The translations under genes were made by a program, and so were the position numbers. Source: Naegleria gruberi (taxonomy: Eukaryota). Taken from it: a stretch of DNA of 1,391 nt. The notes beneath the pieces were generated by a model that was given only the letters and a program-made list of their open reading frames with translations, was not told where the DNA came from and made no database searches. This document shows positions 1 through 837 of this stretch, piece by piece. Within the stretch, counting starts at the first letter, position 1. Each line of letters begins with the position of its first letter. Where the stretch lies: NCBI GenBank assembly GCA_000004985.1, contig GG739432.1, one strand, 5' to 3'.

Positions 1-7
1 ATATCAA
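1..7 (-). CDS. Start of exon 3 of the MAPK gene (partial, 7 nt in window). TT completes Ile, then GAT (Asp) and AT- (Ile).
   Basis: The rc of 1..7 is TTGATAT, directly after the AG acceptor. It is in the correct phase to give I-D-I of the IDIWS motif. The gene continues beyond the window. Confidence 0.5.
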
Positions 8-72
8 CTATTATATATTAATGTAAATATATGTAAATATGTATAAATATGAATGTAAATAAAAAAACCTAC
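8..72 (-). other. Intron 2 of the MAPK gene (65 nt, phase 1). Donor GTAGGTTTTT at 72 downward, acceptor TAATAG ending at 8.
   Basis: Coding strand reads GCT GCA A|GTAGGTTTTTTTATTTACAT...ATATAATAG|TT GAT AT. Splicing gives ...DYGAA-I-D-I..., restoring the near-universal MAPK subdomain IX motif (I/V)DIWS. Without splicing the frame runs into a nonconserved tail [20 protein letters not shown] and a stop. This is the only AG in the interval apart from the donor's own. Confidence 0.6.
21..60. repeat. Tandem 10-bp minisatellite. ATGTAAATAT x2 perfect (21..30, 31..40), followed by two degenerate units (GTATAAATAT, GAATGTAAAT).
   Basis: Direct reading of 21..60. The period is 10 bp. It lies entirely inside intron 2 and accounts for most of its length. 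Confidence 0.7.
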
Positions 73-386
73 TTGCAGCACCATAATCTTTACACATTAA
101 AACTAATTCAGGAGCTCTATACCATCTTGTAACAACATATTCAGTCATTTCACTATTATTATCAAATCCTCTTGCTAATCCCAAATCACAAATCTTTACA
201 TCACAATTTTCATTTACTAAAATGTTACTTGGTTTTAAATCTCTATGAAGAACATTTGAAGTATGAATATATTTTAATCCTCTAAGGATTTGATAAACAA
301 AGTATTGAATATGATCACTTGATAATACTTGTTTAGATTTAATTACTTGATATAAATCTGTATCCATCAATTCATTAACAATATAA
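73..386 (-). CDS. Exon 2 of the ERK-family MAP kinase. Completes Val99, then encodes [104 protein letters not shown], plus the first nt of the next codon.
   Basis: Contains the catalytic loop HRDLKPSN, the Mg-binding motif as DLG (KICDLGLAR), the activation loop with the dual-phosphorylation motif T-E-Y, and APE. The first residue of the supplied ORF (M) is really TTG (Leu) at 370..368, part of E-L-M-D-T-D-L. Upstream in-frame codons 386..371 give YIVNE and are preceded by an AG acceptor. Conservation ends at ...KDYGAA, exactly where a GTAGGT donor lies. Confidence 0.8.
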
Positions 387-420
387 CTTTATATTGAATT
401 GTATTAAGGAATGTTGTACA

Positions 421-474
421 TTATTATTATTATATTGAATAAAGTATTAATTATATGTTATTATTATTATATTG
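421..474. repeat. Perfect 17-bp direct repeat TTATTATTATTATATTG at 421..437 and 458..474, with (TTA)4 cores, inside intron 1.
   Basis: Direct reading. The two copies are identical and their starts are 37 bp apart. Confidence 0.6.
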
Positions 475-488
475 TATGAAATCATTCA

Positions 489-500
489 ATCATCATCATC
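489..500. repeat. (ATC)4 / (CAT)n trinucleotide microsatellite inside intron 1.
   Basis: The sequence atcatcatcatc is read directly at 489..500. Confidence 0.6.
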
Positions 501-541
501 AATATTCAATTTAATACAAAAAGAGTAATAATAATACTTAC

Positions 542-837
542 ACATCAGAGAAGGTATTCTTATCAGGAATTGTCATAATATCCTTAACAGAAATAATATT
601 TGAATGACGGAAAGTTCTCAATAATTCAATTTCTCTTAAAATTCTCTTTCCATCTACCAAATCTTGAAACAATTTTGGTACTTTTTTAATAGCAACCTTT
701 TCATTAGTCTTTTTATCAATACCAGAGCATACAAAACCATAGGCACCATAACCGATTGGTTTAATAATTGAATAACTTTCATCAACCTCAAATACTGTTC
801 CATCTACAGTATAGACTTTCTTCTTACTTTGACTCAT
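542..837 (-). CDS. Exon 1 of an ERK-family (TEY-type) MAP kinase. Codons 1-98 plus the first two nt (GT) of Val99. Encodes MSQSKKKVYTVDGTVFEVDESYSIIKPIGYGAYGFVCSGIDKKTNEKVAIKKVPKLFQDLVDGKRILREIELLRTFRHSNIISVKDIMTIPDKNTFSD-V
   Basis: ATG at 837..835 (plus-strand cat). It is preceded on the coding strand by A8 (838..845) and by an in-frame TAA stop three codons upstream (846..844). The translation carries kinase subdomain I (Gly-loop GYGAYG), subdomain II (VAIKK) and subdomain III (REIELL). The ORF continues only 1 codon past the conserved D-V before a stop. A canonical GTAAGT donor overlaps the Val codon. Confidence 0.85.

Follow-up and report, generated by a model that had tools for sequence, protein, structure and literature searches.

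Gene layout and predicted splice junctions

The stretch analysed here (the window) is a complete contig of Naegleria gruberi, GG739432.1, with a length of 1391 nt. N. gruberi belongs to the Heterolobosea within Discoba. The gene lies on the minus strand, where the ORF list gives two reading frames. The first, 538..837(-), encodes 99 aa, begins with an ATG and ends in NTFSDV followed by TAA. The second, 11..370(-), encodes 119 aa and has no ATG; its "start" is a TTG that codes for the Leu of the conserved ELMDTDL. The initial annotation had joined the two as exons of a single intron-containing ERK-type MAP kinase gene, and the ORF coordinates and ends, the TTG codon and the motifs on which it relied were all reproduced on the minus strand.

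The coding part of exon 1 (542..837, minus strand) runs from the ATG at 837..835 through residue 98 and the first 2 nt of codon 99. An in-frame TAA is located 9 nt upstream of this ATG, and the N-terminal MSQS is also found in the orthologue on one of the related contigs (L004, see below). Exon 1 carries the glycine loop GYGAYG, the VAIKK motif with the catalytic Lys51 and the alpha-C Glu69. It is followed by intron 1 (387..541, minus strand; 155 nt, 16% G+C), which interrupts kinase subdomain V in phase 2 (SDV|YIV). Its donor is GTAAGT from position 541 and its acceptor AAAG, with the AG at 388..387; the join, GT|T, codes for Val. Intron 1 contains stop codons in all frames. One of these, an in-frame TAA at 391..389, lies directly upstream of the acceptor, and thus only the AG at 388..387 can preserve the conserved YIVNELM.

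Exon 2 (73..386, minus strand) codes for residues 99-203, with DLG at the DFG position (187..179), followed by the TEY activation loop and by APE. Intron 2 (8..72, minus strand; 65 nt, 14% G+C) lies in phase 1 between KDYGAA and IDI(W). Its donor is GTAGGT from position 72 and its acceptor ATAG, with the AG at 9..8; the join A|TT GAT AT gives I-D-I. Apart from the acceptor, the only AG in this intron is the one within the donor hexamer, and the one further GT near the donor runs straight into a stop codon. What is left of exon 3 are its first 7 nt (1..7, minus strand; TTGATAT), which complete I-D-I before the contig end cuts the gene. If intron 2 is real, the mRNA would read ...GGTGCTGCA|ATTGATATTTGG... 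across the junction of exons 2 and 3. The G+C content is 26-30% in the exons and 14-16% in the introns.

Joined in frame, the exons give a 205-aa N-terminal kinase fragment. The window carries approximately 58% of the gene, counted from its start, and the C-terminal part of about 150 aa, to which the MAPK insert and the common docking motif belong, would lie beyond the contig end. We infer splicing at 541..387 and 72..8 from homology and conservation only.

One kinase domain across both ORFs

The spliced product gave one unbroken match to the Pfam Pkinase family (PF00069), with residues 22-205 aligned to HMM positions 1-179 of 263 and a score of 177.7 bits (curated cut-off 31.7; E=3.9e-52). 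The profile alignment that had been proposed as a check of the spliced protein thus runs through the junctions without interruption. Taken singly, the ORFs cover HMM positions 1-71 (exon 1) and 83-178. In ORF 11..370 the match stops at residue 100 of 119. This indicates that the last 20 residues (SRFFYLH...INI) are not kinase sequence but translated intron, as had been suggested from the reading frame.

The kinase motifs follow each other in the spliced product: GYGAYG at residue 29, VAIKK at 48, HRDLKPSN at 146, DLG at 166, TEY at 180 and APE at 190. When the product is aligned with heterolobosean MAPKs and with one each from a plant and an oomycete, E69 as well as T180-E181-Y182 and the downstream P+1 segment are invariant. 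The MAPK signature F-x(10)-R-E-x(72,86)-R-D-x-K-x(9)-C, PROSITE PS01351, matches residues 57-160 and hence spans the intron 1 junction; this regular expression is found in the spliced product only and in neither ORF alone.

Two independent prokaryote-style genes of 99 aa and 119 aa would agree with the mechanical ORF list, in which both frames appear, and with the fact that prokaryotic gene callers divide the orthologues on two related contigs (L003 and L004) likewise. Yet each ORF amounts to only a part of one kinase domain, the second has no ATG and would have to start at a TTG inside ELMDTDL, and kinase homology does not extend into its last 20 residues. Moreover, the source is a eukaryote, and the joined product is identical to an existing GenBank model. 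We therefore consider two separate genes practically inconceivable. The warning in the initial annotation against reading this DNA ORF by ORF was justified, given that the kinase domain is divided between the ORFs and that a spliced model is already in GenBank. Homology, the identity with the GenBank model and the conserved intron positions described below together confirm, at the level of sequence, that the two ORFs are exons of one ordinary intron-containing TEY/ERK-type MAPK gene.

Existing database record

The best protein match (P0001) is XP_002668026.1/EFC35282.1, a "predicted protein, partial [Naegleria gruberi]" of 203 aa with 100% identity, encoded on a single contig of 1391 nt, the window itself. 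The next relatives are heterolobosean. The protein database search that had been recommended for taxonomic placement therefore leads to N. gruberi itself. In the initial annotation the AT-rich DNA had been described as dictyostelid-like, with the reservation that it might come from another AT-rich lineage. It is the reservation that was correct: a dictyostelid origin is rejected, as the database names N. gruberi and the close relatives are all heteroloboseans. No Dictyostelium protein was named among the best 120 protein matches.

XP_002668026.1 consists of exactly exon 1 plus exon 2 and ends with KDYGAA, which means that the GenBank model already uses intron 1. It does not include intron 2 and carries no functional name. 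Beyond this record, the window provides evidence for a further intron and for another 2 and 1/3 codons (IDI). The gene is therefore already known from GenBank, and the only additions made here are the functional name and the second intron, which extends the model.

Exact look-ups of the GenBank model and of the first ORF found no second contig with this gene, and the protein searches found no second close N. gruberi copy. Among 135 matches to the C-terminus of the orthologue from Willaertia magna, none was named N. gruberi. It seems that the public N. gruberi data lack the 3' half of the gene, either in the assembly or in the annotation. A literature search found no publication that mentions the accession numbers of the gene.

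Orthologues and conservation of the intron positions

Orthologous genes were found in several heteroloboseans. The closest one (89% identity) is on contigs L004 and L003, where a full-length orthologue of 378 aa could be exactly spliced by hand with four introns. It is followed by Willaertia magna (L001; 85-86% identity), in which the annotated 350-aa protein ABK040_009037 (P0002) was mapped exactly onto the gene, and by the annotated gene of Acrasis kona (L006/P0004; 76% identity). A further one is on a partial Acrasis-like contig (L002). The full-length orthologues have 345-378 aa, have the TEY loop throughout and contain a C-terminal LHDxxDEP (LHDPKDEP-type) stretch, which we take to be the common docking (CD) region.

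In both N. gruberi and L004/L003 an intron is present at site 1 (subdomain V, phase 2) and at site 2 (A|IDxW, phase 1). The L004 introns at TFNDV(GT|T)YIV and EYNYA(A|TT)DIWSVGC coincide with the two introns of the window in codon and phase. W. magna has site 1, with a 43-nt GTAAGT...AG intron at TFTD(AT|A)YIVNELM, which is the codon and phase 2 of intron 1, but not site 2. L002 and A. kona, conversely, lack site 1 and have site 2; the intron is placed at A|TC GAC ATG TGG in L002 and at QEYSEA|IDMWSVG, in phase 1, in A. kona. In addition, the blastn similarity of the window to L001 and L004 ends at the exon borders. The in-frame join of GTAAGT at 541 to the AG at 388..387, as originally proposed, is thus found at the same site in Willaertia and L004, and the GTAGGT intron at 72..8, which restores KDYGAA|IDI, corresponds in codon and phase to introns of L004/L003, L002 and A. 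kona.

These data also bear on the question whether only intron 1 is real, the coding sequence after KDYGAA being different and the 7-nt match to IDI a matter of chance. In favour of such a reading are the GenBank model, which breaks off at GAA and has no intron 2, the absence of an intron at this place in Willaertia, and the fact that the window shows just 7 nt of exon 3. Without intron 2, however, translation would continue for 20 aa without kinase homology and then meet a stop codon, in DNA whose G+C content falls to 14%, and the alternative GT of the donor region leads to an immediate stop codon. Furthermore, L004/L003, L002 and A. kona all have an intron that agrees in codon and phase, and L004 resumes with the identical TTGATAT: its exon 4 opens with the same TTGATATTTGG, that is (I)DIW, as at window positions 7..1. 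That intron 2 is spurious is highly improbable on this evidence, and we retain both introns.

Each heterolobosean lineage has its own intron set. An extra intron at GFVC|SALNKK is found in Willaertia (L001 5102..5223) and another at HRDL|KPSN in L004, L002 and Acrasis; at both places the N. gruberi coding sequence is continuous. A third one, at PGK(D/N)|Y, is present in L004 and Acrasis, the corresponding site being beyond the end of the N. gruberi contig. The extra introns extend over 2321..2366 and 2649..2693 in L004 and over about 262..299 in L002. The two intron positions common to heterolobosean lineages, with lineage-specific losses, are a minor data point for intron history.

Several observations were made on the orthologous loci themselves. 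In the public prokaryote-style calls for L003 (852..2204) and L004 (1742..3094) the MAPK orthologue is split into pieces of 117 and 114 aa, and spurious antisense genes are called between the pieces. A SET-domain gene is located downstream of the MAPK orthologue in L003, L004 and L007; the L007 contig begins further downstream and has no overlap with the window. The P0004 model of A. kona has no glycine-rich loop (L006 578..640) and reads KPIG|AAQDK, whereas its relatives read KPIGYGAYG.VCSA. Its first "intron", GTACGG...GAAG, has 63 nt, a multiple of 3, and apparently removes coding sequence. The missing glycine loop in A. kona is probably an error of the gene model.

The DLG motif and the integrity of the gene

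Residues 166-168 (window 179..187(-); GAT TTG GGA), at the DFG position, read DLG in the N. gruberi product: the Asp is retained and Leu takes the place of Phe. In the alignment DLG is also present in the W. magna and L004 orthologues, whereas DFG is retained in A. kona, in P0003 and P0005, in a plant MAPK and in an oomycete MAPK; L002 has DFG as well. Because Willaertia and L004 have it too, DLG is a conserved feature rather than a lesion. In the aligned sequences the substitution appears to be peculiar to the Naegleria/Willaertia lineage. DLG is found in some active kinases. With DLG in place of DFG, kinase activity is assumed for the predicted product.

On a contig of just 1391 nt with a truncated gene, one might suspect a dead copy, i. 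e. a pseudogene, the remnant of a collapsed haplotype or contaminating DNA on an orphan scaffold. That the protein searches gave neither an N. gruberi C-terminal half nor a second close copy would be in line with this. But both exons are intact and have canonical splice sites, and the nearest relatives are all heteroloboseans, which fits an origin from Naegleria. Since the truncation coincides with the contig end, it is a limit of the assembly and not a lesion. Most codon differences to the orthologues are synonymous, with 69 synonymous and 18 non-synonymous differences to L004 and 44 and 27, respectively, to Willaertia; this is the pattern of purifying selection and speaks against a dead copy. 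We judge this explanation very unlikely.

The 5' flank

The remainder of the window (838..1391, minus strand) would comprise the 5' UTR, the promoter and intergenic DNA. It contains short ORFs only and short low-complexity repeats only. A second gene in 838..1391 was sought by six-frame tblastn and sensitive blastn against the orthologous loci, with no match above chance level; no Rfam family was found in this region and, overall, neither coding nor RNA features were detected in it. In Willaertia a protoglobin gene lies upstream of the MAPK gene; no trace of it was found in the window. An ATG ORF of 40 aa on the other strand, 1202..1324(+), has the sequence MNIEICSFNEEQLFNETEELLANLIKRYQLSFSHNTILLK and resembles nothing in the orthologous loci; in DNA this AT-rich it has probably arisen by chance.

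The minus strand of the flank contains two copies of the 13-mer AAGCCTTGTTTGT, at 1047..1035 and 1029..1017, with 18 nt from one to the next; a G/T-rich run, GTGGTTGTGGTGGTGTGGTAGGTG (979..1002), follows them. The 13-mer was noticed by eye, the repeat search having a minimum length of 14 nt. It may be an element of the promoter region or may have arisen by chance.

Proposed action of the gene

The explanation that we consider almost certain is that the window contains the 5' flank and approximately the first 58% of an N. gruberi TEY-type MAPK gene with two spliced introns. In this gene, the spliceosome would remove two short AT-rich GT-AG introns (541..387 and 72..8) and leave an mRNA that encodes MSQSKKK...NTFSDV|YIVNELM...KDYGAA|IDI..., the remainder being located past the end of the contig. 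Judged by its homology, the protein would be a Ser/Thr kinase of the CMGC group. Kinases of the MAPK family are activated when a MAPK kinase phosphorylates the Thr and the Tyr of the TEY motif. In the N. gruberi protein this would concern Thr180 and Tyr182, and the active kinase would then phosphorylate Ser/Thr-Pro sites of its substrates. Catalytic activity, activation mechanism and biological role are what we infer by analogy with the family.

For annotation, the locus illustrates how genes are broken up into spurious "genes" when eukaryotic DNA is given an ORF track of the prokaryotic kind, as also happened in the L003 and L004 calls. For the GenBank entry, the analysis provides the name TEY-type MAPK and an extension over the second, evolutionarily conserved intron. 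Beyond annotation hygiene the finding has little significance, as this is an ordinary and already known gene.

Relation to other MAP kinases

A conventional TEY MAPK in Naegleria has been reported (Doczi et al. 2012, as cited in PMC3515877 and PMC4363184). Possibly, the gene described here is a second TEY MAPK that was overlooked beside the "single conventional" one of Doczi et al. 2012, and DLG, common to Naegleria, Willaertia and L004, marks a clade-specific change in the regulation of the activation segment. We regard this as a speculative and rather unlikely proposal.

Among solved structures, the best match in a PDB search was Arabidopsis MPK6 (6dtl/5ci6; E=1.7e-78), followed by Arabidopsis MPK4 (7w5c; E=5.2e-75). 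Then came a "MAPK 3, putative", ERK2, ERK5 and a fungal MAPK named MPS1 with E-values of about 1e-62 or weaker; ERK2, ERK5 and fungal MPS1 scored about 50 bits below MPK6 and MPK4. The ERK-type animal and fungal structures reached about 212-215 bits over residues 6-205. The alignment with MPK6 crosses both junctions without a gap, its sole gap being one residue far from either of them. At the intron 1 junction MPK6 reads FNDVYIAYELMDTDL; at the intron 2 junction CKDYGAAID of N. gruberi is aligned with SSDYTAAID of MPK6. The MPK4 alignment is likewise gap-free at both junctions, and ERK2 is a strong match over the same region.

All of the best 60 PDB matches bear MAPK names that we recognise as ERK-type. 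There was no p38 or JNK among these 60, save for the engineered MAPK1/MAPK14 chimera 6rfo. The labels that JGI and metaclust give to homologues, "mitogen-activated protein kinase 1/3" or K04371, are of the same kind. Judged from its sequence, the product is thus supported as an ERK-like (TEY) MAPK of the CMGC group, and not as one of the TGY (p38), TPY (JNK) or TDY type. The original assignment to the "ERK/Fus3-Kss1 branch" holds as far as the ERK type with its TEY loop is concerned; the mention of Fus3/Kss1 was too specific, as MPK6 and MPK4 are the best matches and the PDB matches gave no evidence for a placement specifically with Fus3/Kss1.

The likeness to the plant enzymes MPK6 and MPK4 consists in the TEY loop and the catalytic motifs. 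Plants belong to a different eukaryotic supergroup, and their MAPKs have DFG where N. gruberi has DLG. In Rhamnella, the one plant gene that was checked, neither of the two intron positions of the window is shared. Animal ERK1/2 (MAPK1/3) and ERK5 (MAPK7) as well as fungal MPS1 have, like the N. gruberi protein, an activation loop of the TEY type.
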